DNA of 64,000 bases from Candidatus Woesearchaeota archaeon (GTDB lineage: Archaea; Nanobdellota; Nanobdellia; Woesearchaeales; GW2011-AR4), in contig JACPTC010000017.1 in assembly GCA_016192985.1 (NCBI GenBank), positions 65,766 through 129,765 on the forward strand. The letters run 5' to 3'. Positions 171-62,300 of this stretch are shown piece after piece. Position 1 is the first letter of the stretch. Every line of letters starts with the position of its first letter. The translations under genes were made by a program, and so were the position numbers. The notes below the pieces were generated by a model. The model was not told the origin of the DNA, searched no databases, and saw nothing but the letters and a program-made list of their open reading frames with translations.

Positions 171-869
171 ATGAGAAAAAATCTGTGGCTGTTTGACATT
201 GATGGAACTCTTGTTAACATAAATAAGATTCATCTTGCCTCTTATAAGCTCGATTATAAGGAGACAGCTGGAAAAAATGTATCGGACGGCACAATACTGA
301 GCACATTCGGCATGTCAGAAAGCGATGCACATAAAAAAATATTCCAAAAGCTCGGAATACCATACGATACAAGCCTCATCACAAAAATAATGTCATCACA
401 CATTCCAAATTTCAAAAAAATCCTAAATCAGACTGACATAATTCCATTGGAAGGTGCGATAAGTTTTTTGGAATATTTAAAAAAGCGCCGCCAATATACA
501 GGTATAGTGACAGGAAATCTGGAAGAAATTGCAAAACTTATCCTACATAAGTCTAGTTTAATAAAATCATTTTCTGCCCTGAATTGCGATGACGGCAAAA
601 GCAGCAGAATACAGATATTAAAGCGCGCAATTAATTCAGCTAAAAGGCGAAAATATAAATTTAAAAAAATAATTGTTATTGGCGATACAACCAAAGACAT
701 TGAAGCCGGAAAATATGTAAAAGCCTTAACAGTTGCTGTAGCAACAGGCTCTGATAGCATCAAAAAACTAAAAAAATTAAAACCCGATATAATGTTAAAA
801 TCCTTGAAAGACTACAGGCTCATTTTTAAAGAACTTGGCGAAGACTTATCATCTTTTCATCAACAATAG
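171..869 (+). CDS. HAD-superfamily hydrolase (subfamily IA-like phosphatase)
   Basis: N-terminal motif LWLFDIDGTLVN (DxDGT nucleophile motif), TGIVTGN, and a K...IVIGDTTKDIEAGK motif IV; 232 aa. Confidence 0.65.
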   Translation: MRKNLWLFDIDGTLVNINKIHLASYKLDYKETAGKNVSDGTILSTFGMSESDAHKKIFQKLGIPYDTSLITKIMSSHIPNFKKILNQTDIIPLEGAISFLEYLKKRRQYTGIVTGNLEEIAKLILHKSSLIKSFSALNCDDGKSSRIQILKRAINSAKRRKYKFKKIIVIGDTTKDIEAGKYVKALTVAVATGSDSIKKLKKLKPDIMLKSLKDYRLIFKELGEDLSSFHQQ

Positions 870-1849
870 CTCCTTTTCCGCTTCTTTCAAATCGTGCTCG
901 ACCATTATCCTGACCAGTTCTTTGAATTTTGTTTTTGGTTTGTAGCCAAAAGCTTTAGTCGCTTTTGAAAAGTCCCCTGTCAATGAGTCTGTTTTTCCTG
1001 GTCTAAATAGTTTTTTGTCAAATTCAACGTAATCATAAGCGTCAAGCCCGACAACCTTGAATGCCTCCTCCAAAAACTCCTTTATCGAATGAAGCTCGCC
1101 TGTGCATATTATGAAATCATCTGGATTCTTCAACTGCAATATGCGCCAGGCTGTTTCTGCATACTCTTTAGCATAGCCAAAGTCAATTTTCAGTTCTATA
1201 TCTCCAAGAATCAGCTTTTTCTGCAATCTTTTTGATATTCTGGCAGCGGCCTTGGTTATCTTTCTTGTTACATACTCTTCCAGTCGCCTGGGGCTTTCAT
1301 GATTGTAAAAAATCGCTGTAGAAGCAAACAAGCCAAAAACCTCGCGATAATACTTTGTCAACAAATAAGCAAATGCTTTTGCGCATCCGTAGGGACTTTG
1401 TGGCTTGAAATAGGCATCTTCATTTTGTGGGTTTTGGGCTTTTCCAAACATGTTTGATGACAATGGCTGGAAAAATTTTATTTTTTTGTCAACCTGTTTT
1501 ATGATTTCAAGTATCCTGCCAACAGCTGCGCCTGTAATGTCAAATGAATAATCCACTGAATCATAGCTCCAGCTTACATGGTCTTGGTCTGCCATGTTGT
1601 AAACTTCATTTGGCCCGATTTCATTAATAACTCTGTAGATTGATGTAGCATCAGCAAGGTCGCCTTTATGCAGTCTAATCTTATCTAAAATATGCATTAT
1701 ATTTTTTTTATTGCCAGTTGCACTTCTTCTTATTAACCCATGGACTTCACAACCCTTGTCGAGCAAAAGCTCAGCTAGGTATGAACCGTCTGCCCTGCTT
1801 CCGCTACTTGGCCGGTTATACCTAAAACAAGGGCTTTTTTCTCTTTCAT
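849..1849 (-). pseudogene. GDP-mannose 4,6-dehydratase-like SDR gene split by a frameshift
   Basis: The 1766..849 ORF has the GMD-like NHESPRR motif and YxxxK but lacks the Rossmann N-terminus. That N-terminus (MKEKKALVLGITGQ) lies upstream at 1849..1775 in another frame. Removing 17 nt (1791-1807) restores [23 protein letters not shown]. Confidence 0.5.
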
Positions 1850-1888: not shown

Positions 1889-4267
1889 TCATACAATCCT
1901 GAAATTCGGCAGCGGAACAATAAATCTGCCGCCTTTTTCCCTCCATTCTTTTTCTCTTTCAATAAACTCCTTTAAGAAGGCATAGGGTAGCACTAGGAAA
2001 TAATCTGCTTTTTTCCTTGCTTCTTCTTCAGACATTATCGGAATCATTGTGCCTATTGTACACTTATTCCACTTTTCAGGGCTTTTGTCAGCAGCTCCCT
2101 CAATAAGCTCATTTGTAAGCCCGTAATACTGAAGAATGGTATTCCCCTTTGTTGATGCACCATACACATAAACCTTTTTGCCTTTCTTGACTTCTTGCCT
2201 AATAAATTCCACACACCTCTTTTTATTTTCCTCAATTCTTCTAAAAAATGCCTCGTAGTCCTCTTTTGTGAATTTTTCATCAAACAAAATGCTCCCTTTA
2301 TTGTAATGCCTCGCATATAAGCGGTAGGAACCGCCATTAACATCATTCTCCTCTATCTTAAAAATTTCCAAGCCATTTTTCTCAAAAAGGTATTTAAGAG
2401 ACTCAATGGAATAATACTCAAGATGCTCATGGCAATTATGCACTATGGCGTTTGATACAAGATAAGTTTCATCTTCGGTTTCAATGTTGTAAACCAGATT
2501 GTCATATTTTTTAAAATTAACACTTTTTACTGGAGCTAAAATATAGTTATTCTTATAGATAACATGGCAATTTTCATTACCTTTGTGTTCATAACCAAAT
2601 ATTTGCCCCAATACTTTTGATGTACCTCGTAATTGCCAAGAATCTTTTGATATTACTTCTCCACTTCTTATCTTTCTTGGATAAGGTTTCACATAGCTTA
2701 TGCCAAGCATTCCACCCAAAGATGCGGTTAGGAGTTGAACCTGTAACGCAAGAGTTTTAGATGAGGTGTGGAAATGCACCTTGTTTCCTTTGATGTAACC
2801 GTCACCATCAAATAATCCACGTAAGAAGGCTATTTTAATCTCTTCTGGCGAAAACATAATAAAATCTGGAACATGCTTGTTAATAGCCCCTTTTCCCACC
2901 AATTTAGGAAGAGCACGCGCTAAGGCAGCACAAACAACACGGACTTCAATAGAATTTCTGTCATTATAAGAAATAATGCTTGTTTTGTATTCCAGAGTTT
3001 TGAATATGTAACTTATTCTTTTTAATAGATTAGTTTCCTTTTTGTTTATAGTAAAACAAACATATGGGTTGTTGACTTTACCACCTATATGCCCTTCTGC
3101 TACATATAATCCAAGTAACCATGCAGTATCATTATTTATAGGTAGCGATGACAAACCACTTCTATAGCCACGACTATTTATTTGATTGAATTCTGTCAAG
3201 TCTATTTTATCCAAAAATTTGTTATGTATCAGTTTTGGGATAACAACAAAATCTGCTCTTCTAATTTCTTTTGCTGGAACCCACTCTAATTTGTAGTTAT
3301 CTAGTTTTGTTTTTAATTGCATACAATCATGTCTAAACCATTCTTTTTTAACAATTTTAATAGGGTGTTCAGGCGTTACCTCAATAGCTTCCAAATACAT
3401 TGGTTTAATTTTGACAATATCACCTTTAAAATGACGACTAATTGTATTTCTAATTTCCACTAATGTTCCACCATTTCCAATAGCGTAATTGCCTTTGGCT
3501 AATTTACTAATTGGTTTATTATCGCCTAAAATTATAGTGTCTGGTTTGACGCATATATTCCCAACATCGTTTTTTTCCAGCATATTCTTAAGGCACATGA
3601 GTTGAGCAACGAAAATGCCGTCTTCAGCCATTGCCTTAGCAGAGTCAGCAACAAACTGGTTTGGGTCTTCCATGTCATAAAACATTCCAATAGCGGTTAT
3701 TGCCTTTGCTTTCCCTGTGCCTAATTTTTTGTACGCATCATAGCTCCAAAAATCATGTATAATCAAATCACAATTCTGCCTGAGCTCGTTTATGAGGTTG
3801 TCAGCAGGCTCGCATCCTATTTTTATAATTCCTTTTGGATAAGATTTCAACAATGTCCCGTCATTAGCGCCAATATCCAAAACTATATCCCCTTCTTTCA
3901 GATTTGCCATTTTTGAGACAGTTTCGGTTATTTCGCGCAACGCTCTTTTCATTGTTTCCGTAAATCCTGAATGGTACCAGTAAAATTTGGAATAAAGCAG
4001 TTCCTGGGGAGCTGTGTGCCTCAATTGCAAAAGCGAACAATCTTCACAAAGAACCAATTCCAGCGGAGCTTTCATATGCTTGGAATGATCTTCCATTTTT
4101 ATAAAGTTGCTTACATACAAATTGCCCAAGGAGAAAATTGAAATAATATTGCTGGAATAGCATAATCTACAGGCTTTTATCATTGTGTAAGGCATCTGCT
4201 CCTGGTTGCTGTGAACAGCGGACAATGGAATTGTTGCCATTTTATTAATCATTAACAGGAAAACCAC
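1889..4267 (-). CDS. NDP-hexose C-methyltransferase (TylCIII-like) interrupted by an intein
   Basis: N-terminal Zn-ribbon CRLCYSS...CEDCS, class I MTase motif VLDIGANDGT, and a C-terminal NDP-hexose C-methyltransferase (TylCIII)-like domain. The mature host is 419 aa after removing the 373-aa intein. Likely real start is M25 at 4195. Confidence 0.75.
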   Translation of the reverse strand: MVFLLMINKMATIPLSAVHSNQEQMPYTMIKACRLCYSSNIISIFSLGNLYVSNFIKMEDHSKHMKAPLELVLCEDCSLLQLRHTAPQELLYSKFYWYHSGFTETMKRALREITETVSKMANLKEGDIVLDIGANDGTLLKSYPKGIIKIGCEPADNLINELRQNCDLIIHDFWSYDAYKKLGTGKAKAITAIGMFYDMEDPNQFVADSAKAMAEDGIFVAQLMCLKNMLEKNDVGNICVKPDTIILGDNKPISKLAKGNYAIGNGGTLVEIRNTISRHFKGDIVKIKPMYLEAIEVTPEHPIKIVKKEWFRHDCMQLKTKLDNYKLEWVPAKEIRRADFVVIPKLIHNKFLDKIDLTEFNQINSRGYRSGLSSLPINNDTAWLLGLYVAEGHIGGKVNNPYVCFTINKKETNLLKRISYIFKTLEYKTSIISYNDRNSIEVRVVCAALARALPKLVGKGAINKHVPDFIMFSPEEIKIAFLRGLFDGDGYIKGNKVHFHTSSKTLALQVQLLTASLGGMLGISYVKPYPRKIRSGEVISKDSWQLRGTSKVLGQIFGYEHKGNENCHVIYKNNYILAPVKSVNFKKYDNLVYNIETEDETYLVSNAIVHNCHEHLEYYSIESLKYLFEKNGLEIFKIEENDVNGGSYRLYARHYNKGSILFDEKFTKEDYEAFFRRIEENKKRCVEFIRQEVKKGKKVYVYGASTKGNTILQYYGLTNELIEGAADKSPEKWNKCTIGTMIPIMSEEEARKKADYFLVLPYAFLKEFIEREKEWREKGGRFIVPLPNFRIV
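2435..3553 (-). mobile_element. Intein with LAGLIDADG homing-endonuclease domain in the C-methyltransferase
   Basis: Starts with Cys (...VGNI|CVKPDTIILG), block B TPEHP, LAGLIDADG motifs LLGLYVAEGHIGG and LRGLFDGDGYI, ends ...AIVHN followed by +1 Cys (CHEHLEYYS). Host flanks rejoin into a conserved NI-HEH motif. Confidence 0.8.
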
Positions 4268-4271
4268 ATTT

Positions 4272-5000
4272 TTAATTCTTGCTGGTTCCTATCGCAATTA
4301 GTCTGTCCCCTATAGGGAAAATAAATTTGTTCTCAACATACTTGTACCACCAATAAATTAATTTGTTGAGTGCTGGGTTTAAAGCGCCGTAAGGATATTC
4401 CTTTTTTTTTGTTATAAGCAAGTATATCGTTGGAATGAGGCAAAAAAAATTATAATATGCCAGCTTTATGTCAGAATAGCCTGCTTTCTCAAGCTTTTCC
4501 CTGAGGAGTTTTTTTGTATACCTTTTTGTGTGCCCTATCCTTCTATCCCTCTCAGTGTACAGCCATTCGAATGTAGGCATGTCAAAAACCAATATCTTGC
4601 CATTGTTTTTAAGAACCCTTCTTGCTTCAGCCATCATCCTTTCCTCATGCTCTATGTGCTCCAGAACACCTGCAAAAAGAACCGCATCAAACTTTTCTTT
4701 TGGATGAATCTTTTCAAGCCTTATGCACTCAAAGCGCACTTTCAGCTTGTTTTTTTTTGCTTTGTCTTTTGCAAGCTTGATAAGCCTAGGGCTGATGTCA
4801 ATGCCTGTTACGTCAAGCCCTTTTCCTGCCAGATAAACAGATACTTTTCCCAAGCCGCACCCGACATCCAATATACGGTAGGCATTTATGCTCTTGAGCA
4901 GCTTATAAATAGCTTCTGCTCTTTGCTCATTGTATAAGGGTGTTTCTCTGTCCAGCGCCATCTCAGCTGCTTCAGTTTCATATTGCTCCTGCCTGTTCAT
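4272..5000 (-). CDS. Class I SAM-dependent methyltransferase
   Basis: Motif I ILDVGCGLGKVSVYLA, DxD post-I, VLFAGVLEHI motif; 242 aa. Confidence 0.7.
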   Translation of the reverse strand: MNRQEQYETEAAEMALDRETPLYNEQRAEAIYKLLKSINAYRILDVGCGLGKVSVYLAGKGLDVTGIDISPRLIKLAKDKAKKNKLKVRFECIRLEKIHPKEKFDAVLFAGVLEHIEHEERMMAEARRVLKNNGKILVFDMPTFEWLYTERDRRIGHTKRYTKKLLREKLEKAGYSDIKLAYYNFFCLIPTIYLLITKKKEYPYGALNPALNKLIYWWYKYVENKFIFPIGDRLIAIGTSKN

Positions 5001-16641: not shown

Positions 16642-18546
16642 ATGATAGAAATAGTCTACCTAATTTTTTTGATGCTGGTTTCAATTGCACTAGGCCAGTG
16701 GATTTTAAAACTATTAAAGGTAAGCTTTTCCTCCTATTTGGAAGAGTTTGTTTTTTCCTTGCCGCTTGGATTGTCCACTTTGGCTTATACCACTTTTTTA
16801 ATAGGAATTGTGGGGTTTTTATACAAGCCAGTCATAATCCTAATATTGGCTGTACTTTTTGTTATTCTGTTCCGCGACATAAAAAGATGCTTGTCAAATA
16901 TTGCTAACACCCTAAAAAAATTCAATTCAAAGTCATTGATAAACAAATATTATATCGGGTTTGATTTTTATTCTATTCTTATTGTTTTTATTGTGTTTTT
17001 TGCCATCTTCAATTTTGTGCTTAGTTTTACCCCGCCATGGCATTTTGACGTGCTTGCATACCATCTGGCTGTGCAAAAACTCTACCTTAATGCCCACAAG
17101 ATCATTTATTTGCCTTATCTTTTCTTCTCTAACCTGCCATCATTGGTTGATTGGATATACCTTATTGGCCTTGTACTGCATAATGGCATATTGTCCAATC
17201 TGCTCGGCTACTCTCTTGGAATAGTCTTTATTTTGGCAATTTACTCATTTTGCAGGAAATTCTTCAATCATAGAATTGCTTTGCTGTCATCATTAATTTT
17301 TTACAGCATTCCAATGGTCTCAATGCTAGCAAAAACAGCGCACATAGACGTACAGTTTGCCTTATTTATATTTCTGGCCATATACGCTTTGTTTTCCTAC
17401 TTTTCATCTAAGAGCAATAAATGGCTTGCTTTATGCGCAGTTTTTTCAGGTTTGGGAGCATCAACAAAGATATTCGGCGCAGCAGCTGTTCTGGGAATTT
17501 TATTATTGCTTCTCTTAAATATGGCATCAAGAACAGCAAGCAATGGAATTGGATGGAGGCAATTTTTATTGAGACTAGCCATGTTTGGCGTCATTGCCAT
17601 ATTCGTAACTTCTCCATGGCTTTTGAAAAACTACTTCTTCACAGGGAATCCATTCTGGCCTGCGCTAAATAACATTTTTCATGGCAAATACTGGGATGAA
17701 AATCATCAGGAAGACCTTTCAAAGATGATAAATCTTAGAAAGCCAAGCTTGGCAAACTATGCAAGGCTGCCATGGGATATACACACTCAGGCAGGCAAGA
17801 GTGCAGGAAATATAGATGAAGATTTGGAGATTGGGCCATTCCTGCTTGCCTTTTTGCCAATTTATCTGTTGCTAAGCAAAAAGAACAAAATCATAAACCA
17901 GATGCTTCTTCTAGTTTTTATTTATCTGAGCATCTGGTTTTTCTTATCGCATGTCCTTAGGTATGTGATATTCATAATGCCTTTGGTAGCAATAATCTCA
18001 GCTTATGTATGTGAGGAACTTCTTAACAACTTCCGCATATCAGCAATCCTGAAGGCACTTCTTGTCTTTACTTTCAGCTTTAACCTAATATTCTTGATTC
18101 TATCAACTGCAAAAGAACTGCCTGTTGCAATAGGGTTTGAAACAAAAGACGCTTTTTATTCAAAGTATCCAGGAGCAATATACAAGGCTTCAAAGTTCGT
18201 CAATTCCAACCTGCCTGAAAACTCAAAAATTTTGCTTTTTAGGGATACAAGAGGTTACTTCCTTGACAGGGACTATGTATGGGGTGATCCTTTAATGCAA
18301 TTGTATATTGACTATTCAAAATTCAAGAATGAAGACGAGCTTTATGAAGAGCTGAAAAGCAAAGGCATAACCCATATACTGGCTAACACAAGGTTTAGTT
18401 GGAGTAATGTGCTTCAAGATGTTGTAGCAAATGACTACAGGTATAACAAGAGAATATTAGGCTTGATGGATAATCTATTAATAAAACATACCGTTAATAT
18501 TTACGATAATGAAGGCATTTTGATAAACAGAATGAAAAATGAATAA
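16642..18546 (+). CDS. Polytopic membrane protein, GT-C-like (ArnT/PMT-type) glycosyltransferase candidate
   Basis: 634 aa, about 12 TM helices followed by a C-terminal soluble domain; sits in the glycan cluster. Confidence 0.4.
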   Translation: MIEIVYLIFLMLVSIALGQWILKLLKVSFSSYLEEFVFSLPLGLSTLAYTTFLIGIVGFLYKPVIILILAVLFVILFRDIKRCLSNIANTLKKFNSKSLINKYYIGFDFYSILIVFIVFFAIFNFVLSFTPPWHFDVLAYHLAVQKLYLNAHKIIYLPYLFFSNLPSLVDWIYLIGLVLHNGILSNLLGYSLGIVFILAIYSFCRKFFNHRIALLSSLIFYSIPMVSMLAKTAHIDVQFALFIFLAIYALFSYFSSKSNKWLALCAVFSGLGASTKIFGAAAVLGILLLLLLNMASRTASNGIGWRQFLLRLAMFGVIAIFVTSPWLLKNYFFTGNPFWPALNNIFHGKYWDENHQEDLSKMINLRKPSLANYARLPWDIHTQAGKSAGNIDEDLEIGPFLLAFLPIYLLLSKKNKIINQMLLLVFIYLSIWFFLSHVLRYVIFIMPLVAIISAYVCEELLNNFRISAILKALLVFTFSFNLIFLILSTAKELPVAIGFETKDAFYSKYPGAIYKASKFVNSNLPENSKILLFRDTRGYFLDRDYVWGDPLMQLYIDYSKFKNEDELYEELKSKGITHILANTRFSWSNVLQDVVANDYRYNKRILGLMDNLLIKHTVNIYDNEGILINRMKNE

Positions 18547-24319: not shown

Positions 24320-25777
24320 ATGATGTCTGCTCTAAATGATTTTATGTCTATCCAATCAAGAATATTGAAGAATATAAGTTTTGTAAGCGCTGGCGAGCTA
24401 ATATCAAATTTTTTATCATATTTTCTAATCATTTTTATTGCCCGACTCCTCGGATCTGAAGGACTGGGAATTTACTCATTTGCATTCGCATTTGTTGGGC
24501 TGTTTGCGGTCTTCAATGATTTTGGACTTTCAACTTTTTTCGTTAGAGAAGTTTCAAAGAAAAGGGAAGATATAGAAAAATATTTTGGCAATTACGCCGC
24601 AATGAGGCTCATCTTGTGCATTATTTCGGCTGTATTGCCTTTGGTATTCATTTTATTCTTAAAGAGGTCGTCGTATGTTGTTGGTGTTGTGTATCTGGCT
24701 GCCGTAGCACTTTTCTTCCAAAATTACTCTTATATTCCGAGAAATACGTTTCTGGCTTATCAGGTTATGCAGTATGATTCTGCCATCAAGATAATCGAAA
24801 GAATTGTTGCATTTACGTTAGGTTTGTACGTGCTCTGGGCAGGCTACGGATTGCTGGCGTTTCTTATAGTGCTTGCTATATCCAATTTTATAGCGTATAT
24901 AATGTCTGTGATATTTCTAAGAAAGATAAATATAAAGTTTAGATTCAAAATAGACTATAAAATATGGAAATCAATGCTCAAAACTTCTTGGCCATTTTGG
25001 CTTTCAATGATTTTTTTACAAATTTATTTTCAGCTAGACACAGTGATGCTTTCTTTTATGAAAGGATACGAGGCTACTGGATTGTATAATGCAGCTTACA
25101 AGTTGATATTTGTTGCTGATAAAATACCTTTGATAATTGGTCTTGTATTATTTCCTGTTATGTCTGAGCTATACGCTAGCATGTCAAAGGGACTATTAAA
25201 AAAAACACTTCAAAAAGGCTCACATTTAATGATAATTTTGAGTCTTCCATTGATTTCAGGCACAGTTATTTTGGCAGACCGGATAATATTATTTATCTAT
25301 AAATCCGATTTTAAAGGCTCTATTATTGCCCTTCAAATACTGATATGGACTACCTTTTTCATGTTTCTGAGTTATCTTATCGGCTGGTTCCTTAATGCAA
25401 CTAACAGGCAGAAGATTTTTACATATACTACGGGCTTGTGTCTCGCTTTTAATGTAATACTAAATTTTATGCTTATACCCTCCTTTGGTTACACTGGAGC
25501 TTCGATAGCGACGCTTGTAACCGCCGCATTGAATTTTTTATTATTATACCATTTTAGTATCAAATCCGGATATTTTGTAAATATTTTCAAATTAATTTTA
25601 AAACCCCTAATTGCCGCTATACTGATGGGAGCATTGATAATCTTTTTTGGGAAAGATATTCATCTTCTCGCATTGATACCTGTATCAGCTCTTTTTTATT
25701 TTTTATTGCTTATTCTTATGAAAGATGTCAAAAAAACGGACTTTGAGGATTTCCTTTCAAAGAAAAGTTTTAAATAA
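24320..25777 (+). CDS. Wzx-like oligosaccharide flippase (MOP/polysaccharide biosynthesis protein family)
   Basis: 485 aa, about 12-14 TM helices, polysacc_synt-like organisation. Confidence 0.6.
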   Translation: MMSALNDFMSIQSRILKNISFVSAGELISNFLSYFLIIFIARLLGSEGLGIYSFAFAFVGLFAVFNDFGLSTFFVREVSKKREDIEKYFGNYAAMRLILCIISAVLPLVFILFLKRSSYVVGVVYLAAVALFFQNYSYIPRNTFLAYQVMQYDSAIKIIERIVAFTLGLYVLWAGYGLLAFLIVLAISNFIAYIMSVIFLRKINIKFRFKIDYKIWKSMLKTSWPFWLSMIFLQIYFQLDTVMLSFMKGYEATGLYNAAYKLIFVADKIPLIIGLVLFPVMSELYASMSKGLLKKTLQKGSHLMIILSLPLISGTVILADRIILFIYKSDFKGSIIALQILIWTTFFMFLSYLIGWFLNATNRQKIFTYTTGLCLAFNVILNFMLIPSFGYTGASIATLVTAALNFLLLYHFSIKSGYFVNIFKLILKPLIAAILMGALIIFFGKDIHLLALIPVSALFYFLLLILMKDVKKTDFEDFLSKKSFK

Positions 25778-25799
25778 GCCCCAAAAATCCGCAGATAAA

Positions 25800-28439
25800 A
25801 TGCCTACAATACTCGGCTTTCATAGCCATAATCTTACAGGCGCTGCGCTCGTCAGTGACGGAAGGATTATTTCTGCAGTCAATGAGGAAAGACTAGACCG
25901 AATTAAAAACAGCCCTGCATTTCCTGAGAAATCTATAAAAGAAGTTTTAAGAGAAGGAGAGATGAAAAATGAGGAAGTAGACTCTATTGCGATAGGTGAC
26001 CTTATTTACAAATTTCCCGCCATTAGTGAATACATCAAGAGATTATTTGTAACTTCCCCAAAATACCACTACAATATAATTGGAAGGATTAAGCATATAT
26101 GGAATATGCAATCAAAATGTTCCAAGGCAAATTTTAGATACTCAAACAAAAATTTTCCTGGCAAAAATATCAATAATGTAGAGCATCATGTCGCGCATGC
26201 CGCTTCTGCCCATTTTACTAGCGGCAATGATAAAAACTTGATAGTGACTATTGACGGGTGGGGCGATAAACTGTCAAATGGCGCATACATCGGCAATAAA
26301 GCTAGCATTAATAGATTATACAGCTCTTATGATTTGGACTCATTGGGCTACTTTTATAGCAGAATCACTGTTGCTTTGGGCTTCAAGCCCCACAGGCACG
26401 AAGGAAAGATAACAGGACTCGCTGCTTATGGAAAGCCAAGCAGCGATTTAACTAAATTAATGGACAAAATGGGATATTTTGATAGAAGGAACATGAGATT
26501 CAAGTTCAATCTCGGTGAAGATTATTTCCCAACGCTGGATGTCAAGGAAAAGCTTATACATAAACTATCAAAATTTAAGAAAGAGGATGTTGCTGCAGCA
26601 GCCCAAAAATTTCTTGAGGACACAACAAGGCAGTATGTAACAGCTTTAATAGATAAAGAAGGCAGCCATCACCTAGTATGTGCTGGAGGAATCTTCGCTA
26701 ATGTTAAAATGAACCAGATAATCAAGGATTTGCCAGGAGTTAAAAGCATTTTTGTTCATCCAAACATGGGGGACGAAGGCTTGTGCCTTGGATGCGCCCT
26801 AAAAACCTATAATGATAAGTATGGGTATATGAATGTTAGATTAAAAGATGTTTATTTTGGTCCAGAATTTACAGATCAAGAAATTAAAGAAGAGCTTGAC
26901 AAGTTCAATCTGGAATATGAGCACTTAAAAGACATTGAGTACCAAGCTGCAGAACTGCTGTCCAAAGGCAAGGTGGTTGCCCGCTTCAATGGCAGAATGG
27001 AGTATGGGCCAAGAGCTTTAGGCAACAGAAGCATTCTTTATCAGACACAAGACAAAAGTGTAAATGACTGGCTTAACAAGCATTTGCATAGGTGTTATGA
27101 TGATAAAACAGAAATTTTGACTAGTGAAGGTTGGAAGCTTATTAAGGACATTTCAGATGGCGAAGTTGTAGCAACGCTCAATCCAAAAAAAGACAGCCTC
27201 GAGTTTCAAAAAATCACCAAAAAAATTTCATATGATTATGACGGGCAAATGTTTAAGATTAAAAACAAGAGGATAGATCTGGTTATAACTCCTAATCATA
27301 ATCTATGGGTTAAAAAAAAGCATGGATCATCCTTTTCATTTATAAAAGTGGATGATGTTGCAAAAATAAGAACATATCATTATCAAAAAAAAGGAGGAGT
27401 TGATTGGAAAGGTAAAAGACGCGAAAGCTTCAGATTAGGAAGAAAAAAAATCCTTATGGATATTTGGTTGGAATTTTTAGGATATTACCTTTCCGAAGGC
27501 AGTGTTTATTATGATGGATATGGTCATTATAGGGTTTCCATTGCGCAATCAAAGAATTCTCGGCATTTTATCTCAATAGAAAGATGCTTAAAAAAACTTC
27601 CATTTAAGTTTTTTTATTCAAAAAAAGAATTTATTGCCAATAATAAAATGCTTTTTGATTATCTAAAAAAGCTTGGCAAATCTGGAAATAAGTATATCGC
27701 TAGAGAGTTTATGTCTTTAGAGAAGAAACAGCTTATGATTTTATTTAAAGCTTTAATTGACGGAGACGGCAACATAAGGGGAAACGGCTATAGATACGCT
27801 ACTACCAGCAGATTGCTTGCTGATAATGTTCAAGAGCTAGCGTTTAAATTAGGTTATAGTGCTTATTTATCCATGCAGAAGAAAAGTCTTAATCCAAAGC
27901 ATAATCAGTTGTATATGGTTAAGATAGGAAGAAGTCCTGTGGCTACTGTAAGAGCTAATCAAATAACTAAAATTCCATATAAGGGGAATGTATATTGTGT
28001 TACCGTGCCTAATCATATTATCTATGTAAGGCGCAACGGCAAGAGCGTTTTTTCAGGAAACACAGAATTTATGCCTTTCGCGCCAGTAACCATAGCAAAA
28101 TATGCAGATAAATGCTACCAAGGCATAAGGGGGGCGGAATACACAGCAAAATTTATGACTATCACATTTGACTGCACAGACTGGATGAAAGAGGCTTGTC
28201 CAGGCGTTGTGCATATCGATGGAACTGCAAGACCGCAGTTGATTGAAGAATCCGATAATCCAAGCTATTTCAGGATAGTTGATGAATACAGGAAAATAAC
28301 AAATGTACCGTGCCTGATAAACACAAGCTTTAACATGCATGAAGAGCCTATTGTATGCACACCAAATGATGCAATAAGGGCATTTAAGGACGGCAATTTA
28401 GACTATTTGGCTATAGGAAATTATCTTGCAAGAAATTGA
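25800..28439 (+). CDS. Carbamoyltransferase (NodU/CmcH family) interrupted by an intein
   Basis: N-terminal MPTILGFHSHNLTGAALVSDGRII...EERLDRIKN and the conserved ...LNKHLHR|TEFMPFAPV motif split by a 323-aa insert. Mature host is about 557 aa. Start chosen at the MPTIL ATG at 25800. Confidence 0.8.
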   Translation: MPTILGFHSHNLTGAALVSDGRIISAVNEERLDRIKNSPAFPEKSIKEVLREGEMKNEEVDSIAIGDLIYKFPAISEYIKRLFVTSPKYHYNIIGRIKHIWNMQSKCSKANFRYSNKNFPGKNINNVEHHVAHAASAHFTSGNDKNLIVTIDGWGDKLSNGAYIGNKASINRLYSSYDLDSLGYFYSRITVALGFKPHRHEGKITGLAAYGKPSSDLTKLMDKMGYFDRRNMRFKFNLGEDYFPTLDVKEKLIHKLSKFKKEDVAAAAQKFLEDTTRQYVTALIDKEGSHHLVCAGGIFANVKMNQIIKDLPGVKSIFVHPNMGDEGLCLGCALKTYNDKYGYMNVRLKDVYFGPEFTDQEIKEELDKFNLEYEHLKDIEYQAAELLSKGKVVARFNGRMEYGPRALGNRSILYQTQDKSVNDWLNKHLHRCYDDKTEILTSEGWKLIKDISDGEVVATLNPKKDSLEFQKITKKISYDYDGQMFKIKNKRIDLVITPNHNLWVKKKHGSSFSFIKVDDVAKIRTYHYQKKGGVDWKGKRRESFRLGRKKILMDIWLEFLGYYLSEGSVYYDGYGHYRVSIAQSKNSRHFISIERCLKKLPFKFFYSKKEFIANNKMLFDYLKKLGKSGNKYIAREFMSLEKKQLMILFKALIDGDGNIRGNGYRYATTSRLLADNVQELAFKLGYSAYLSMQKKSLNPKHNQLYMVKIGRSPVATVRANQITKIPYKGNVYCVTVPNHIIYVRRNGKSVFSGNTEFMPFAPVTIAKYADKCYQGIRGAEYTAKFMTITFDCTDWMKEACPGVVHIDGTARPQLIEESDNPSYFRIVDEYRKITNVPCLINTSFNMHEEPIVCTPNDAIRAFKDGNLDYLAIGNYLARN
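27093..28061 (+). mobile_element. Intein with LAGLIDADG homing-endonuclease domain in the carbamoyltransferase
   Basis: Cys1 (R|CYDDKTEILTSEGW), block B TPNHN, LAGLIDADG motifs FLGYYLSEGSV and LIDGDGNI, block F VYCVTVPNHIIYV, terminal ...SVFSGN followed by +1 Thr. Penultimate residue is Gly rather than His. Confidence 0.75.
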
Positions 28440-47542: not shown

Positions 47543-50500
47543 TTATTCCTTCTCTGTACATTTCTGCACATTCTTTCTGACTTTTTGTAGTTTGCAATTA
47601 CCATATTTTGAGCATTCTTTAGGCGTCAAATCAGAACATTGTACCTTTATACATTTCTCTAATTCTTTAGTTTGTGTCCATCCGCATTTTCCATCGTTTT
47701 GTCTTTCGCATTTGCCAAATTCTTGATAGCAAGCGTATTTTGGTTTGTATTCGCATGTAGTAGCCATTTTGTCCATGTAAGAAGCCTCTCCGCAAAGCTC
47801 GCCAGAGCAGCCTCCAGCTTTGCATGGCTCAGGTTTATCAACGCATTTTATCCTATTCTTTCTTGCTTTTATGACTTCGCAATTATCGTATTTTTGGCAC
47901 TCATCTATTATTAATTCAGAGCATTTTCTTTTTACGCAAGTGCCATCTTTGCAGCCGCTCGCACATCTAAACATATCTCTTTGCGGATTATTGTTGGCAT
48001 CGCAGGAAAGCTCGATTACATAACATTCTTTGCCGTCGCAATAATCCTTATGCTCATAATTGCCTGCAGCTACTTTTACTGCACATTTGTCAGGCACAGG
48101 AGACAAATCCCAGCCAGGGTAATTTGTTGCAAGTGTTCCTTTGGTATAGTATTCTTTTCCGCCATCGGAGTCCACACATTTAAGTGCAGATGTAATCTCA
48201 ATTTCTTTTGTTGCCTTAATGCCTTTACCACTTATTTTGTCGAAAGTTACCCTATATTTTCCAGTTTTTACGCTAGTGCCTTTGCAATCAAGCCTTGCTG
48301 GCCAATCTCTGGAATCGCATGCAGAATAATCCATTTGGTTCCATACTCCTACATATTTCTGTTCTCCCGGTTTGATAGGTATTTCTGATATAATGAATGC
48401 GCAATCAAAAACCGGCCCATGATTTCTTACCATATTCCCTTTCAAATCGGTAATTGTAATCAAGGGATTGCAAGTGCTGTCTGTTTCCTGGCCTGTTTTT
48501 GAGCTATAATATAAAATTTCATCCCCATTGTTCTTTACAAAAATATCTATCTTTTCTCCAGCGTAATAACTTTCTTTTTGCGTTACTACTTCTAACCCAT
48601 TTTGAGGACTGATACATGCCCCATTTGAGCAGCCTTTAGCTCCGCAACCTTGTATTTTTCTTTTAGCAACGCCATTTTCACAATAAAACTCAGTCATTTC
48701 GCTTAAAAGTCCATTTCCTAAATCCATTCCAGAACACTCATCCGCAACTTCTATGGCATCAAAAAAAGCGTCAGGAAGACCGTCCCCTTTCACCACTCCT
48801 GGCAAATTCGAAGCCTTAATGCTACCTTTAACGTAGTAATTTATTCCTTCATCAGAATCTGTGCAATTTCCTTCTTGCACTGCGACAAAGTCACTGCAAA
48901 CGCTATACTTGTTCCCATGGCAAAGCTGAAGTTTCTGCCCGTTGCTTATTCCAAAGAAGCCGCTTAATGGTTGCGTTACCTTGATGTTTTCTCCAGAAGT
49001 GCAGAAATAATTAGGTGTGTGCATAATGGCTTTTTTATCATTCAAAAGGTGTACACATACATCAAAGTTTTTGGAATAAGTAACTTCCAAACTAGAATCT
49101 ACTATTTTAATTGATTGAAGTCTGACTTCCTCTGCTTCACAACTGTCAGTCTCAAAAGAACCACTTGAAGTAAAGCCAACAACCAAGGGCTTTCTGTTAT
49201 GGCCTCTTTCGCGCACCCATTCAACTTTATACTCATAATTTTTTCCTTGCACGGCTTCATTCCAACTGACTGAACTGCTGTCAGGCTGTCCAGACCATTC
49301 AGCTCCTCCAGCGATAGTTATGTCAACGCCCTTCGATTTTTCGTCAAATGGCCAATTAATCAATTGCCATGAAATAACAACATGAGGCAACCCATTCTTG
49401 CAAGTGGCAGTAGCACTTGAAGTTGCTGAAGGTTCGGAAGATGCTTGGACTTCAATTGGAACGCTTCGAACCAGCTCTTTAAACCCATTCTCTCCATAAT
49501 AAATAAGTTCGTAAGTGCCTGGGTTTTTTGGAGCTTGCAAAGCGCCGGTTCCTGACTTTAATCCCTTAATATAAAAAAATCCAAATTTGTCATTCCATTG
49601 CGCTCCTTTTGGAGCAAAGGCAATGTAGTCATTTTCAAATGCAGTGCCTAAATTGTCCCAATAAACAGAAAGTTCCTCTCCTGCTTTTACATCTGTTTTT
49701 GATGGTTTTATATTAACAAGTGAAACAACTTCAAAACTTGTACTAACCACGTTATTATCTCTGTCAAACTCTTTTAAATTATTTGAAGGGTCAAGCTTTA
49801 CAATGAGATTTTTCATTCCTTGTGTTGGGAACGTAAATATAAAAGCAGACATACAACTCTCGCCGGGTTGTAAAACAGTTGATTTGCCGCACGTATCAGA
49901 CTTATGAATATTTTGAATTCCATCATCATTATTGGAGTAAATATACAGCGTAGGCGAAGCAACAGCAGTGCCAATATTAACAACTTTAAAAGCTACAAGA
50001 ACTTCCTTATTTGATTCTCTGATGGTCGGTGATATAAAAAAGCCTTCAGGCACGGCAAGGTCTGGAAGACTGGCTGAAAGACTGCAAGTAGCATCAACTT
50101 CAAAAGAATTCACGCCACATTTACCTGTGTCTTTGTCACATTTATTAATACATGACGTTTCAGCGTAACTCTTCCAAGTTCTGGATGGCTTACAAGAAGT
50201 TTCGCTACCCTGTAATTCACTATAACCATCATGACATGCCCATTTTGCGTACCTAAATCCCACTGGTTGTTGTTTTTCAACGCATTTTTTCCTATTCTTT
50301 CTAACCTTTTTAAGCTCGCAATTATCGTATTTTTGGCACTCATCTATTATTAATTCAGAGCATTTCATGCACCTATCATTTCTGCAGCCATTTGGACACA
50401 TATAACTTGTTTTTTTACCTACATCCCCTTCGCAATAATACTCAGTTAGTTCGTTGTCCAAGCAAACATCATAATCCTTAGCTTCTTTTTTTCCTAATAT

Positions 50501-50635
50501 TACGAAACCCTTTTCGAAATAATTTTTTCCACCATCAGAATCTGTACATATCTTGGGCGGTGGAGGCGGTGGAGCTTTTGAGTTTACTGGCTGCACAAAT
50601 ACGTAAACAAACAAAATTGACAATAACGACAGCAA
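47543..50635 (-). CDS. Large secreted cysteine-rich repeat protein (surface protein candidate)
   Basis: 1030 aa. Signal peptide followed by PPPPPPK. Three C(T/V)DSD(G/E)G..Y..KG modules. Two near-identical KCSELIIDECQKYDNCE modules plus a third divergent copy; many Cys. Confidence 0.6.
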   Translation of the reverse strand: MLSLLSILFVYVFVQPVNSKAPPPPPPKICTDSDGGKNYFEKGFVILGKKEAKDYDVCLDNELTEYYCEGDVGKKTSYMCPNGCRNDRCMKCSELIIDECQKYDNCELKKVRKNRKKCVEKQQPVGFRYAKWACHDGYSELQGSETSCKPSRTWKSYAETSCINKCDKDTGKCGVNSFEVDATCSLSASLPDLAVPEGFFISPTIRESNKEVLVAFKVVNIGTAVASPTLYIYSNNDDGIQNIHKSDTCGKSTVLQPGESCMSAFIFTFPTQGMKNLIVKLDPSNNLKEFDRDNNVVSTSFEVVSLVNIKPSKTDVKAGEELSVYWDNLGTAFENDYIAFAPKGAQWNDKFGFFYIKGLKSGTGALQAPKNPGTYELIYYGENGFKELVRSVPIEVQASSEPSATSSATATCKNGLPHVVISWQLINWPFDEKSKGVDITIAGGAEWSGQPDSSSVSWNEAVQGKNYEYKVEWVRERGHNRKPLVVGFTSSGSFETDSCEAEEVRLQSIKIVDSSLEVTYSKNFDVCVHLLNDKKAIMHTPNYFCTSGENIKVTQPLSGFFGISNGQKLQLCHGNKYSVCSDFVAVQEGNCTDSDEGINYYVKGSIKASNLPGVVKGDGLPDAFFDAIEVADECSGMDLGNGLLSEMTEFYCENGVAKRKIQGCGAKGCSNGACISPQNGLEVVTQKESYYAGEKIDIFVKNNGDEILYYSSKTGQETDSTCNPLITITDLKGNMVRNHGPVFDCAFIISEIPIKPGEQKYVGVWNQMDYSACDSRDWPARLDCKGTSVKTGKYRVTFDKISGKGIKATKEIEITSALKCVDSDGGKEYYTKGTLATNYPGWDLSPVPDKCAVKVAAGNYEHKDYCDGKECYVIELSCDANNNPQRDMFRCASGCKDGTCVKRKCSELIIDECQKYDNCEVIKARKNRIKCVDKPEPCKAGGCSGELCGEASYMDKMATTCEYKPKYACYQEFGKCERQNDGKCGWTQTKELEKCIKVQCSDLTPKECSKYGNCKLQKVRKNVQKCTEKE
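47841..47927. repeat. Intragenic direct repeat, copy A, within the Cys-rich gene
   Basis: About 87 nt, with a perfect 49-nt core cgcaattatcgtatttttggcactcatctattattaattcagagcattt identical to copy B. Confidence 0.8.
50280..50366. repeat. Intragenic direct repeat, copy B, within the Cys-rich gene
   Basis: Matches 47841-47927; encodes the repeated KCSELIIDECQKYDNCE module. Confidence 0.8.
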
Positions 50636-53696: not shown

Positions 53697-54794
53697 CTAT
53701 ACCTCCAATTTGGTCCAAATAATTTTCTGGCCAATTTTGTTTGATTTTGTTATTAAACCTTTCTTATATAAATCTTTTAATGGCATGTTTACATTACTTT
53801 TTCTAACGCCTAATTTGAAAATTAATTCTTCTGTAGAAAGATTTTCCGATGAAAGCAAGTCAATAATTTCTTCCTTTGTTTCGTTATTTTTTCTTCTTAC
53901 ACCATTATAATTATTTCTAATTTCAATTAATTTTGATAGTTTATTTAACTTCGTGGGATGATTAAATCCAATTACTTGAAAATATTTTTCAATCTCTTTT
54001 GGTTTTATTGTTAAATAAAAATATGATTCTGATTTTTCAGCTATTTGAACATCGCTAAAATCTAATTTTCCTGTTAGTAATTCTTTTATAGATAATAAAA
54101 TATTTTTATTAGTTGAATAAATACTTATCTTATGATTCAAATCTACATTTCCTTCGTCATCAGCAAAAGCCCTGATTAGAGCTACGGAAAATTCTATTGG
54201 CAAATCTTTAATTCTTTCCGGGATTATGGCATTTCGTGTTTTGAAATCAATATTATAAAAGAATTTAATTAAGTCCGCAATAACTCTTGGGGACCTTAAA
54301 TCGTAACAGCCTGAATTTCTATAATAGATTTTTTCATCTACATCACCAAAAACAGATGAAATTAGTTTTTGGAAATTATCTATTAAGTCTTTATTTGAAT
54401 TTGTGTATATAGGAATATTATTCTTGTTGACGCTTCCATCTCCAATTAAATGTGCAATCAGGGCAAATAACTCTGGACTTTCGATTATCGGTAGTTTAGG
54501 ATTTTTAACCGCTAAGCTCGAATTAGGGCCTTTATAGGTGATAACATTGCTTTCAATTTCATTCCAATCAAGACCTCTTTTATTAACTATTTTTTTAATA
54601 TGGACTAAAGGTATGAATAGATTTAATTTTTTCCAAAAATGAATTACTTGAGGAGATACAGACAAGAAATTTGCTAATTTTTTTAACGAGCCAAAATAGT
54701 TTATACTATCATCTATAAATTTATCATTATCGCTAAGTAATATCCTAATCCTATCTGCTGGAAAATCTTTCAAATGAAATTTTTTAATTACCAT
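53697..54794 (-). CDS. Free-standing LAGLIDADG homing-endonuclease-like protein with flanking HTH domains
   Basis: Two LAGLIDADG motifs (LIAHLIGDGSV, LIRAFADDEGNV), an N-terminal HTH-like region and a C-terminal winged-helix-like region. Start codon directly abuts the P0 stop (TAAATG) and its stop lies 3 nt before the P1 start. Confidence 0.7.
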   Translation of the reverse strand: MVIKKFHLKDFPADRIRILLSDNDKFIDDSINYFGSLKKLANFLSVSPQVIHFWKKLNLFIPLVHIKKIVNKRGLDWNEIESNVITYKGPNSSLAVKNPKLPIIESPELFALIAHLIGDGSVNKNNIPIYTNSNKDLIDNFQKLISSVFGDVDEKIYYRNSGCYDLRSPRVIADLIKFFYNIDFKTRNAIIPERIKDLPIEFSVALIRAFADDEGNVDLNHKISIYSTNKNILLSIKELLTGKLDFSDVQIAEKSESYFYLTIKPKEIEKYFQVIGFNHPTKLNKLSKLIEIRNNYNGVRRKNNETKEEIIDLLSSENLSTEELIFKLGVRKSNVNMPLKDLYKKGLITKSNKIGQKIIWTKLEV

Positions 54795-60530: not shown

Positions 60531-62300
60531 TTGAAAATGCTGCGCCAATTAATAATAACAGTAATGGGAAATGTTGATAGCGGCAAAACTCAACTGCTTG
60601 ACACAATTAGAGACACCTCTATTGTCGAGTCAGAGCCCGGCAGAATAACCCAGTGCATTGGATGCTCATTTATAACTGCGGATGTAATAAAAAAAATTTG
60701 CGGCAATCTGCTTCAAAAAACAAAGCTAGAGATAAAAATTCCTGGCTTTATTATATTGGACACGCCTGGCCATGCTGCTTTCACAAATCTCAGAAAAAGG
60801 GGCGGCAATCTTGCTGATATTGCAATTTTAGTGATTGATATTAATGAAGGTGTTAAGCTGCAGACGGAAGAGTGTATAGATATACTAAGGCAGTATAAAA
60901 CCCCTTTTGTCATTGCACTAAACAAAATTGATTTGCTGCCCGGATGGGTGTCAAAGTCTGGTGTTAATTTGCTGGACAACATTCAATCCCAGAGAGAGAA
61001 TGTTCTGATTTTTGTTGAAAAAAAACTTTATGAGGTTGTCGGCAGGATTAGCCAGTTTGGCTTTAATGCAGAAAGGTTTGACAGGATTGAGGATTATGCA
61101 AAACAAATTCCAATAATACCAATATCTGCAAAAACCACTGAAGGCTTGCCGGAGATTTTAATGGTATTGGCAGGTTTGTCGCAAAAATTTTTGGAAGAAA
61201 GCTTAAGAGTTGATGTTAAAGGCAGTGCAAAAGGAACAATACTTGATGTCAAAGAAGAAAGAGGCCTAGGAACAACAGTTGATGCCATAATCTATGATGG
61301 CTCCTTAATGCAGAATGATATGATTGTTATAGGCTCATTAAAAGAGCCAATCGTGACAAAAATCAAAGCTTTGTTTGAGCCTTTGCCGCTTGCAGAAATG
61401 CGTGATAAAAAGGCAAAGTTCAAGCCAGTAAAAGAGGTAACTGCAGCAACCGGCGTTAAAATTGCCGCTCCTGAGCTGGATAATGTTGTCGCAGGAATGC
61501 CATTGAGGAGCTGCCTGCCAAATGAGACTGAAAAGGTAAAGGAAGAAATACAAAAGGAAGTGGAGGAAGTTATAATAGAAACTGACAAGCAGGGAATTGT
61601 AATAAAGGCAGATTCGCTTGGCAGTTTGGAAGCGCTTGTTAAAATATTAAAAGAGAAGAATATTGAAATAAAAAAAGCCAGCATTGGCAATATTTCAAAA
61701 AAGGACCTTTCAGATGCAGAAACCAATTATGAAAAGTATCCGCTCCAGAGTTCAGTTCTTGGATTTAATGTAGGAATAATGCCGGAAGTTAGGGTTCCGT
61801 CTAATGTCAAAGTATTGACTAATGAGGTCATCTACAAACTCATAGAAGATTTTGAAAAATGGCAACAGGAAGAAAGGAAGATAATTGAGTCTAAAGAGAT
61901 AGAATTTTTAAACATGCCCTGCAAAATTCAGATAATGAAAGGTTATGTCTTTAGGCAGAGCAATCCCGCTATTGTTGGAGTAGAGGTGCTTACAGGTACT
62001 CTAAAAACAGGAGTTCCGCTAATGAAGAAAGACGGGGCAGCAATAACTGAGGTAAAAAGCATTCAGCAGGAGCAGGAAAATCTTGAGAAAGCTGAAAAAG
62101 GCAAACAAGTCGCTGTTTCATTGAGCAATGTCACAATAGGCAGGCAATTGCAGGAAGAGGATGTGCTATATTCAGCAATTCCAGAAGAGCATTTCAGGAA
62201 ATTCAAGGAGCTCAAGAAGCTTTTGAGCAATGATGAAATAGAAGTGCTCAAGGAAATAGCTGAGATAATGAGGAAAAGCAATCCAATGTGGGGAATTTGA
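60531..62300 (+). CDS. infB: Translation initiation factor aIF5B (IF2 homologue)
   Basis: G1 VMGNVDSGKT, DTPGH, NKID G-domain motifs and beta-barrel domains; 589 aa, no intein insertion. Confidence 0.85.
   Translation: MKMLRQLIITVMGNVDSGKTQLLDTIRDTSIVESEPGRITQCIGCSFITADVIKKICGNLLQKTKLEIKIPGFIILDTPGHAAFTNLRKRGGNLADIAILVIDINEGVKLQTEECIDILRQYKTPFVIALNKIDLLPGWVSKSGVNLLDNIQSQRENVLIFVEKKLYEVVGRISQFGFNAERFDRIEDYAKQIPIIPISAKTTEGLPEILMVLAGLSQKFLEESLRVDVKGSAKGTILDVKEERGLGTTVDAIIYDGSLMQNDMIVIGSLKEPIVTKIKALFEPLPLAEMRDKKAKFKPVKEVTAATGVKIAAPELDNVVAGMPLRSCLPNETEKVKEEIQKEVEEVIIETDKQGIVIKADSLGSLEALVKILKEKNIEIKKASIGNISKKDLSDAETNYEKYPLQSSVLGFNVGIMPEVRVPSNVKVLTNEVIYKLIEDFEKWQQEERKIIESKEIEFLNMPCKIQIMKGYVFRQSNPAIVGVEVLTGTLKTGVPLMKKDGAAITEVKSIQQEQENLEKAEKGKQVAVSLSNVTIGRQLQEEDVLYSAIPEEHFRKFKELKKLLSNDEIEVLKEIAEIMRKSNPMWGI

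Follow-up and report, generated by a model that had tools for sequence, protein, structure and literature searches.

Is the segment that interrupts a sugar C-methyltransferase gene of Candidatus Woesearchaeota a genuine intein, can it still splice and move, and how unusual is such a host? The gene lies on contig JACPTC010000017.1 (assembly GCA_016192985.1), within a 64,000-nucleotide stretch that is here called the window and was analysed at its full length. A first-pass annotation, made from the sequence, had described the segment as an intein carrying a LAGLIDADG endonuclease. The analysis reported here makes it very probable that the insert is a canonical class-1 intein with an intact double-motif LAGLIDADG endonuclease, situated in the GNI/CHEH motif of a TylC3/TcaB9-type nucleoside diphosphate (NDP)-hexose 3-C-methyltransferase.

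Architecture of the intein

The interrupted open reading frame (ORF) and its parts occupy the following positions of the window:

1889..4267, minus strand: precursor ORF, a C-methyltransferase interrupted by the intein; 792 residues from a GTG at 4267, stop codon at 1889..1891
3554..4267, minus strand: N-extein; contains the Zn-binding domain PF08421 (CxxC...CxxC) and the larger part of the class I S-adenosylmethionine (SAM)-methyltransferase domain (motif I VLDIGANDG), ending in ...NDVGNI
2435..3553, minus strand: intein, very probably a class-1 HINT splicing domain with a nested double-motif LAGLIDADG homing endonuclease; 373 residues, 42.3 kDa
3509..3553, minus strand: intein block A (CVKPDTIILGDNKPI), with Cys1 as the N-terminal nucleophile
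3350..3382, minus strand: intein block B (EVTPEHPIKIV), with Thr60 and His63 of the TxxH motif
2564..3196, minus strand: predicted homing-endonuclease domain, approximately intein residues 120-330, modelled as two alpha-beta-beta-alpha-beta-beta-alpha halves
3092..3118, minus strand: LAGLIDADG motif 1 (LLGLYVAEG), intein residues 146-154, catalytic Glu153
2798..2824, minus strand: LAGLIDADG motif 2 (LRGLFDGDG), intein residues 244-252, catalytic Asp251
2435..2497, minus strand: intein blocks F and G (LVYNIETEDETYLV / SNAIVHN), including His372-Asn373
1889..2434, minus strand: C-extein and stop codon, starting at the +1 Cys of CHEHLEYYS and holding the C-methyltransferase C-terminal domain (PF08484)

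The intein begins with CVKPDTIILGDN, ends with SNAIVHN and corresponds to residues 239-611 of the 792-residue ORF, flanked by ...NDVGNI on the N side and by CHEHLEYY... on the C side. The codon of Cys1 (CVKPDT) is located at 3551..3553 of the minus strand, TPEHP occupies intein residues 60-64, and the C-terminal His372-Asn373 pair is followed by the +1 Cys as the first residue of the C-extein. Reverse-complement translation reproduced to the base the limits (2435..3553) and the length (373 residues) given in the first-pass annotation, and Cys1, TPEHP, the two LAGLIDADG motifs, the terminal HN and the +1 Cys all lie where it had placed them. Each of the residues Cys1, Thr60, His63, Glu153, Asp251, His372, Asn373 and +1 Cys is retained in at least 90% of an alignment of 37 relatives; three more Cys residues exist within the intein besides Cys1.

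Profile searches give a similar picture of the insert, with matches well outside what chance would produce. In Pfam, the intein part matches LAGLIDADG_3 (PF14528) in two stretches (E 6e-17) and Hom_end (E 1e-5), and the NCBIfam matches on the insert correspond to the intein portions of models for intein-containing Tes, aIF2, ribonucleotide reductase (RNR) and RNA polymerase. The sole solved structure matched by the insert sequence is the PI-PkoII intein (PDB 2cw7, E 9e-12). GC content is lower in the intein (32.9%) than in the exteins (37-39%); a foreign origin argued from GC content alone was dropped, since this difference is too small.

Predicted fold of the intein

An AlphaFold (AF2) model of the intein, built from the 37-sequence alignment of its relatives, reached a mean predicted local distance difference test score (pLDDT) of 93.7 and a predicted template-modelling score (pTM) of 0.92. 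With high confidence, the model predicts a HINT domain together with a double-LAGLIDADG fold for the insert, and its secondary structure fits the pseudo-dimeric alpha-beta-beta-alpha-beta-beta-alpha arrangement of LAGLIDADG enzymes. In the Foldseek comparison, the best PDB match of the model is the TliVMA intein (E 9e-22, template-modelling (TM) score 0.70), followed by PI-SceI, PI-PkoII and PI-PfuI. The middle domain of the model is matched by the free-standing LAGLIDADG enzyme I-DmoI, with an E value of 1e-8 and a TM score of 0.63-0.72, normalised to the target length.

The four solved inteins, TliVMA (7qsu/7qss), PI-SceI (1vde), PI-PkoII (2cw7) and PI-PfuI (1dq3), all contain a HINT domain with a nested double-LAGLIDADG endonuclease, as predicted here, and share Cys1, the block B TxxH, the terminal HN and the +1 nucleophile with the Woesearchaeota intein. 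Their sequence identity to it is only 13-18%, while the Foldseek E values range from 9e-22 to 6e-15. Compared with these inteins, the Woesearchaeota intein is compact (373 residues) and possesses an Asn at the block-F Asp position; their hosts are the V-ATPase, DNA polymerase and RNR, whereas its own host is a sugar methyltransferase.

Host methyltransferase and in-silico excision

When the two exteins are joined, the Pfam methyltransferase match becomes better and continuous, with E values of 7e-12 for PF08421, 1e-12 for PF13489 and 1e-34 for PF08484. The joined exteins align end to end, ungapped at the junction, with the D-mycarose 3-C-methyltransferase 4rv9 (E 3e-46) and with TcaB9 (3ndi, E 8e-30), which is the contiguity with C-methyltransferases that the first-pass annotation had expected. 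The third solved match is the sugar 3-C-methyltransferase 5t64, the E values over the three ranging from 3e-46 to 9e-28. The Zn-binding domain, SAM motif I, the x-x-E-H motif and the C-terminal domain of these three enzymes are all kept in the spliced product; none of the solved members of the TcaB9-type host family contains an intein.

The top 120 homologues found with the spliced sequence each have a length of 373-424 residues and reach identities of up to 79%; the best named ones belong to Candidatus Woesearchaeota. None of them carries the insert, so the segment is not a domain common to the host family, an outcome that would have undone the earlier interpretation. At the junction, GN[ILV]CHEH is found in 115 of these 120 intein-free homologues; the +1 Cys is therefore host-native, and excision regenerates the consensus exactly. 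The insertion inside NI-[C]-HEH is confirmed by the alignment with TcaB9, which pairs the +1 Cys with a Tyr just ahead of the conserved E-H. In PDB 4e2x, compared with wild-type TcaB9, a Tyr-to-Phe substitution is situated exactly in this column, which shows that the depositors took the residue as mechanistic. The proposed catalytic base of TcaB9, which we take to be His225, reportedly from the work of Bruender and Holden in 2012, lies three residues after the +1 Cys column. Judged from this alignment, the intein splits the catalytic motif of its host. A conserved active-site motif is a typical intein position (PMC7765530).

There are nevertheless differences between the host and its solved relatives. 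The motif reads ICHEH (Cys-His) in the archaeal and Candidate Phyla Radiation (CPR) subfamily and IYDEH (Tyr-Asp) in TcaB9. The Woesearchaeota gene adjoins a gene for GDP-mannose 4,6-dehydratase, whereas the TcaB9-type relatives adjoin dTDP-sugar genes; the host may accordingly use another nucleotide carrier and another sugar than the TcaB9 type. The neighbouring genes, whose order recurs in orthologous loci, fit a putative C-3 methylation of an NDP-4-keto-hexose by the host.

The length of the product depends on the start codon. The 419-residue spliced protein of the first-pass annotation holds if translation begins at GTG 4267; other assemblies call the ATG at 4252, giving a 787-residue precursor and a 414-residue product. 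Further candidate starts are ATG 4240 and ATG 4195, the latter with a GGAG upstream, and the real start is likely to be the ATG at 4252, or else that at 4240 or 4195. From ATG 4252, the computed masses are 90.2 kDa for the precursor, 47.9 kDa for the ligated protein and 42.3 kDa for the intein. No exact match was returned for the product of the ORF when started at 4267, 4240 or 4195.

The locus, its empty counterpart and independent assemblies

The methyltransferase gene belongs to a surface-glycan gene cluster of Candidatus Woesearchaeota, in which a cupin-like ORF, a NUDIX gene, a DegT aminotransferase, a GT2 glycosyltransferase, a class I methyltransferase, the C-methyltransferase and the GDP-mannose 4,6-dehydratase follow one another. 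The window also carries archaeal RNase P RNA and signal recognition particle (SRP) RNA, and no second C-methyltransferase paralogue was found in it.

A syntenic, intein-free orthologue of 409 residues, 79% identical, exists at positions 6001-7230 of L001, a locus of the Woesearchaeota metagenome-assembled genome (MAG) GCA_016187465.1. Across the insertion point, 28 of the 30 central nucleotides are identical between L001 and the window, compared with 75% identity over the whole gene. As far as the alignment tells, the L001 allele is an empty homing site. The empty allele also occurs in assemblies from neighbouring-accession runs (SRR121134xx, possibly one study). Meanwhile, the occupied allele is reproduced at more than 99.9% nucleotide identity in two independent assemblies from other sequencing runs (L087 and L088), and an assembly chimera is therefore excluded as its source. 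The class I SAM methyltransferase gene at 4272..5000 (minus strand), between the GT2 and C-methyltransferase genes, is absent at that place in the otherwise syntenic L001.

Selection on the intein and its movement

Extein and intein identities were compared pairwise among 11 full occupied alleles. Three comparisons illustrate the outcome:

Window and L006 or L013: exteins 72.5-72.7%, intein 48.4-48.7%
Window and L008: exteins 48.4%, intein 58.2%
L005 and L008: exteins 45.5%, intein 61.7%

The similarity ranks of host and intein are thus inverted between allele pairs. The closest relative, L004, is a partial gene in which nucleotide identity to the window is 86.7% in the intein and 76.8% in the C-extein. 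At third codon positions, the identities of this pair are 75% and 50%, respectively (Fisher p = 1e-5); the intein DNA therefore appears to have diverged more recently than the host gene, which points to recent homing. The ratio of nonsynonymous to synonymous divergence (dN/dS) of the intein in the same pair is 0.11. In L006 and L013, the synonymous divergence (dS) is 0.36 for the intein and 0.35 and 0.27 for the exteins, so that the pair looks co-inherited, and the dN/dS is 0.16 for the intein and 0.02-0.03 for the exteins. These patterns of divergence indicate that the intein has been kept functional by selection and has moved horizontally between alleles, as would be expected of an active homing intein.

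Relatives at the same site and at other sites

The C-methyltransferase copies are the set nearest to the intein (41-87% identity); a search with the intein alone placed its closest relatives (44-87% identity) in other C-methyltransferase fragments occupied at the same site, one of them from a Nitrososphaeraceae archaeon. A HMMER search with the whole precursor, exhaustive over 1.84 billion cluster representatives, gave roughly 16,000 family hits and recovered at least about 25 C-methyltransferase clusters (50% identity) with an intein at NI/CHEH. Their representatives contain 740-850 residues, the exteins break at query position 214/215, and the inserts end in HN|CHEH. P0270, occupied at the same NI|CHEH site, holds a mini-intein of about 150 residues. 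In addition, occupied alleles are present on 14 JGI metagenome contigs, both splice junctions being recovered in 12 of them. Some of the same-site proteins bear the automatic labels 'intein/homing endonuclease' (JGI) or 'LAGLIDADG family homing endonuclease' (NCBI).

Hardly any taxonomic names accompany the occupied alleles in the cluster look-up. A GTDB scan with two short peptide patterns found three genomes, which is a lower bound. Full-length occupied alleles are carried by a Saccharibacteria MAG (L005), a Micrarchaeaceae MAG (L006) and a Nitrososphaeraceae MAG (L007), and two of them are positioned as follows:

L005, 2338..4707 of contig CAYJRT010000002.1: occupied allele, assigned to Saccharibacteria only by the binning of a 22-kb contig
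L006, 2311..4704: occupied allele of the Micrarchaeaceae MAG

Both of these alleles are followed by an intact GDP-mannose dehydratase gene. Among complete intein alleles, the L005 intein is the nearest to that of the window (65%), and its allele would imply inter-domain transfer if the Saccharibacteria binning is right. The intein seems to have passed between DPANN, Thaumarchaeota and possibly CPR bacteria.

Other positions of the same enzyme family are occupied as well:

DIG|(C/S)NDGT, in SAM motif I: five representatives
YWYR|SGITET: two representatives
MFYDL|CDP: one representative
GA|STKGN: one representative

The inteins at these other sites, together with the mini-intein, are P0237, P0276, P0296, P0314, P0331, P0268, P0298, P0257, P0321 and P0270; the insert of P0256 is without intein features. 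Outside the C-methyltransferases, the next-closest relatives (P0006-P0091) reach 29-37% identity over the full intein, with E values of 1e-26 to 1e-47. These metagenomic relatives are hosted by Nitrososphaerales NuoB (dozens of clusters), thioredoxin, dCMP deaminase, radical-SAM, Icc phosphoesterase and GNAT proteins. They possess the same conserved residues as the Woesearchaeota intein, in other hosts and at other sites. From these matches, the present intein lineage would seem to live almost entirely in metabolic enzymes.

Proposed splicing and homing cycle

Translation would yield a precursor of about 90 kDa, which would be inactive because its catalytic motif is split by 373 residues. An N-S acyl shift at Cys1 would be followed by trans-thioesterification by the host-native +1 Cys and by cyclisation of Asn373, aided by His372. 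Two products are expected: the joined methyltransferase, about 48 kDa in size and with its native NICHEH motif restored (predicted junction peptide ...NDVGNICHEHLEYY...), and a free endonuclease of 42 kDa. The endonuclease would then cut intein-free alleles across GGGAAT(A/G)T(A/G)|TGCCATGAGCAT, and repair would copy the intein into the cleaved allele, which constitutes homing. The position within an indispensable motif would simultaneously shield the element from imprecise deletion. The predicted autocatalytic splicing is indirectly supported by the purifying selection on the intein (dN/dS 0.11-0.16), and the predicted cleavage and homing are indirectly supported by the 28/30-nucleotide empty site, by the discordance between intein and exteins and by the lower synonymous divergence of the intein.

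Four observations count against this interpretation of the insert as an active canonical intein. First, the Pfam Intein_splicing match (E 3e-7) scores 30.7 bits, below the gathering cut-off of 35.8 bits. Second, Asn356 of block F is aligned with the Asp of the PI-PkoII motif VYDL, and an Asp or His is usual, though not universal or defining, at this position of block F (review in PMC7765530). Asn356 is kept family-wide in the 37-relative alignment, and because of this conservation it would characterise the family instead of marking a defect in the present copy. Third, the signal of recent transfer comes from one partial pair, that with L004. Fourth, if the adjoining GDP-mannose dehydratase gene, which carries a frame-breaking 17-nucleotide insertion described below, were a pseudogene, the pathway and the selection on this methyltransferase copy could be relaxed.

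Among the competing explanations, the one that survives best, although we consider it unlikely, is an intein that splices but no longer moves, its endonuclease being inactive or without targets, and that persists since precise deletion is rare. In the homing cycle, such immobility usually comes as a later stage; the endonuclease-less mini-intein P0270 occupies the same site, and the intein dN/dS of 0.16 is several-fold above the 0.02-0.03 of the exteins. However, both LAGLIDADG motifs and their catalytic acidic residues are intact and conserved, and the dN/dS estimates of 0.11-0.16 take in the endonuclease half. The discordant similarities and the lower synonymous divergence of the intein also speak for movement, and empty targets matching at 28/30 nucleotides are available in related Woesearchaeota and in the assemblies of the SRR121134xx runs.

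It is considerably less probable that the host has turned the intein into a conditional switch of surface-sugar C-methylation, for instance a redox switch acting through Cys1 and the +1 Cys, a role that would be compatible with a canonical, mobile intein. Conditional protein splicing has been proposed for inteins generally (PMC4760082). Both junction nucleophiles here are Cys and three further Cys are present in the intein, while the split catalytic motif would make activity strictly dependent on splicing. Yet the presence/absence polymorphism in close orthologues and the horizontal movement fit a selfish element better.

A dead, non-splicing remnant, with the methyltransferase reduced to a pseudogene in a decaying glycan cluster, is very improbable. 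The frame-shifted GDP-mannose dehydratase gene next to it and the replacement of the block-F Asp by Asn would be in keeping with decay, but the 792-codon ORF is unbroken, the nucleophiles, the TxxH motif and the terminal HN are all present, and Asn356 is conserved across the whole family. Furthermore, no motif is missing from the exteins, whose identity to intact orthologues is 79%, and the insertion in the dehydratase gene has a plausible explanation in RNA splicing. Finally, an accessory domain specific to the family or an assembly chimera can be dismissed, since 120 of the 120 best homologues are without the insert, its motifs and predicted fold are those of an intein, and the arrangement recurs in two independent assemblies and in over a dozen other contigs.

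Rarity of the host and significance

Replication and repair proteins account for 66.9% of archaeal inteins and nucleotide metabolism for 8.3% (Novikova et al., PMC4760082). UDP-glucose/GDP-mannose dehydrogenase ranks within the 15 most frequent intein hosts of archaea, and the COG1004 inteins of this enzyme provide a precedent in nucleotide-sugar and envelope-biogenesis enzymes (PMC4760082); they belong to Euryarchaeota and differ from the C-methyltransferase intein in host fold and insertion site. The first-pass annotation was right to call the host unusual in the sense that it is uncommon, but overstated its rarity in view of the COG1004 precedent, the relatives in metabolic hosts and the dozens of metagenomic sequences occupied at the same site. 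Hosts of this kind are thus uncommon but have precedents, and in its mechanism the element is ordinary.

As a single standard intein, the element does not change the understanding of inteins. It adds a host family and an insertion site, and full-text literature searches, covering open-access text, found no description of an intein in this enzyme family. The natural empty and occupied alleles and the mini-intein variant suit homing and splicing assays, and the predicted splice point, a native Cys within N-I/C-H-E, may be of interest for protein engineering. The pattern of several sites and several lineages, with a second tailoring-enzyme intein 23 kb away, is more interesting than the single copy, and bears on the replication-protein bias of inteins (PMC4760082).

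We put forward tentatively, as a possibility rather than as the favoured view, that TylC3/TcaB9-type C-methyltransferases are an unrecognised intein hot spot, with at least five independent conserved-motif sites and an NI|CHEH element that moves between DPANN (Woesearchaeota, Micrarchaeota), Nitrososphaeraceae and a CPR bacterium. A second intein in the window, hosted by a carbamoyltransferase, and the metabolic hosts of the Nitrososphaerales relatives provide supporting context. If this were true, intein hosts in uncultivated small-genome lineages would be mainly metabolic and glycan enzymes, which would call into question the 'replisome bias' based on cultured genomes; a more speculative idea is that splicing may gate surface-glycan methylation.

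The second intein and other features of the window

The second intein is located as follows:

27093..28061, plus strand: second intein, 323 residues, in a NodU/TobZ-type carbamoyltransferase (ORF 25725..28439)

It contains Cys1 and two LAGLIDADG-like motifs, with a terminal Gly-Asn in place of His-Asn and a +1 Thr, and is inserted at ...NKHLHR|TEFMPFAP.... The spliced carbamoyltransferase aligns with PDB 7xb6 ungapped across the junction (E 1e-68). This intein is only distantly akin to the methyltransferase intein, from which it is 23 kb away, and no third intein was detected in the window with the family profile. The aIF5B (IF-2) gene at 60531..62300 (plus strand), a classical archaeal intein host, is intein-free here. 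Four large ORFs of 365-1030 residues, at 47543..50635 (minus strand), 16642..18546 (plus strand), 53697..54794 (minus strand) and 62795..63943 (minus strand), have no NCBIfam match at E<=1e-10.

A 17-nucleotide insertion in the GDP-mannose 4,6-dehydratase gene

The gene directly downstream of the methyltransferase is interrupted as follows:

849..1849, minus strand: GDP-mannose 4,6-dehydratase gene, with a clean 17-nucleotide insertion at 1790..1808

These 17 nucleotides lie within the Rossmann motif GITGQ|DGSYL and put the gene out of frame. Three homologues lack them, and an independent assembly has them too; no metagenome contig matched in an exact 23-mer scan, and there are no tRNA genes in the window for an intron-style comparison. 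Archaeal mRNA splicing by the tRNA splicing endonuclease is documented only for cbf5 and HVO_1309 (PMC2738675, PMC10485636). From its predicted RNA fold, the insertion is a candidate bulge-helix-bulge mini-intron, the alternative being that it marks a recent pseudogene.

In the RNA fold, a 12-bp exon-exon helix brackets the insertion; inside, a GCC(A)/(G)GGC helix is formed between the boundary 3-nucleotide stretches AGU and AGA, followed by a GC-GGAA-GC hairpin. Bulge-helix-bulge cleavage takes place after the second nucleotide of each 3-nucleotide stretch. Cuts at these positions would produce ...GGC CAA G|AC GGU..., with G-Q-D-G back in frame. The weaknesses of the mini-intron are a central helix of only three Watson-Crick pairs and a minimum-free-energy fold that places the 5' site in a 5/2 internal loop and not in a clean bulge; the plain RNAfold z-score of the region is unremarkable (-0.77). 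The flanking duplex has an energy of -14.0 kcal/mol, a value reached at 0.08% of 20,000 random window positions, and in the homologues without the insertion the corresponding duplex is weak, at -0.5 to -5.8.

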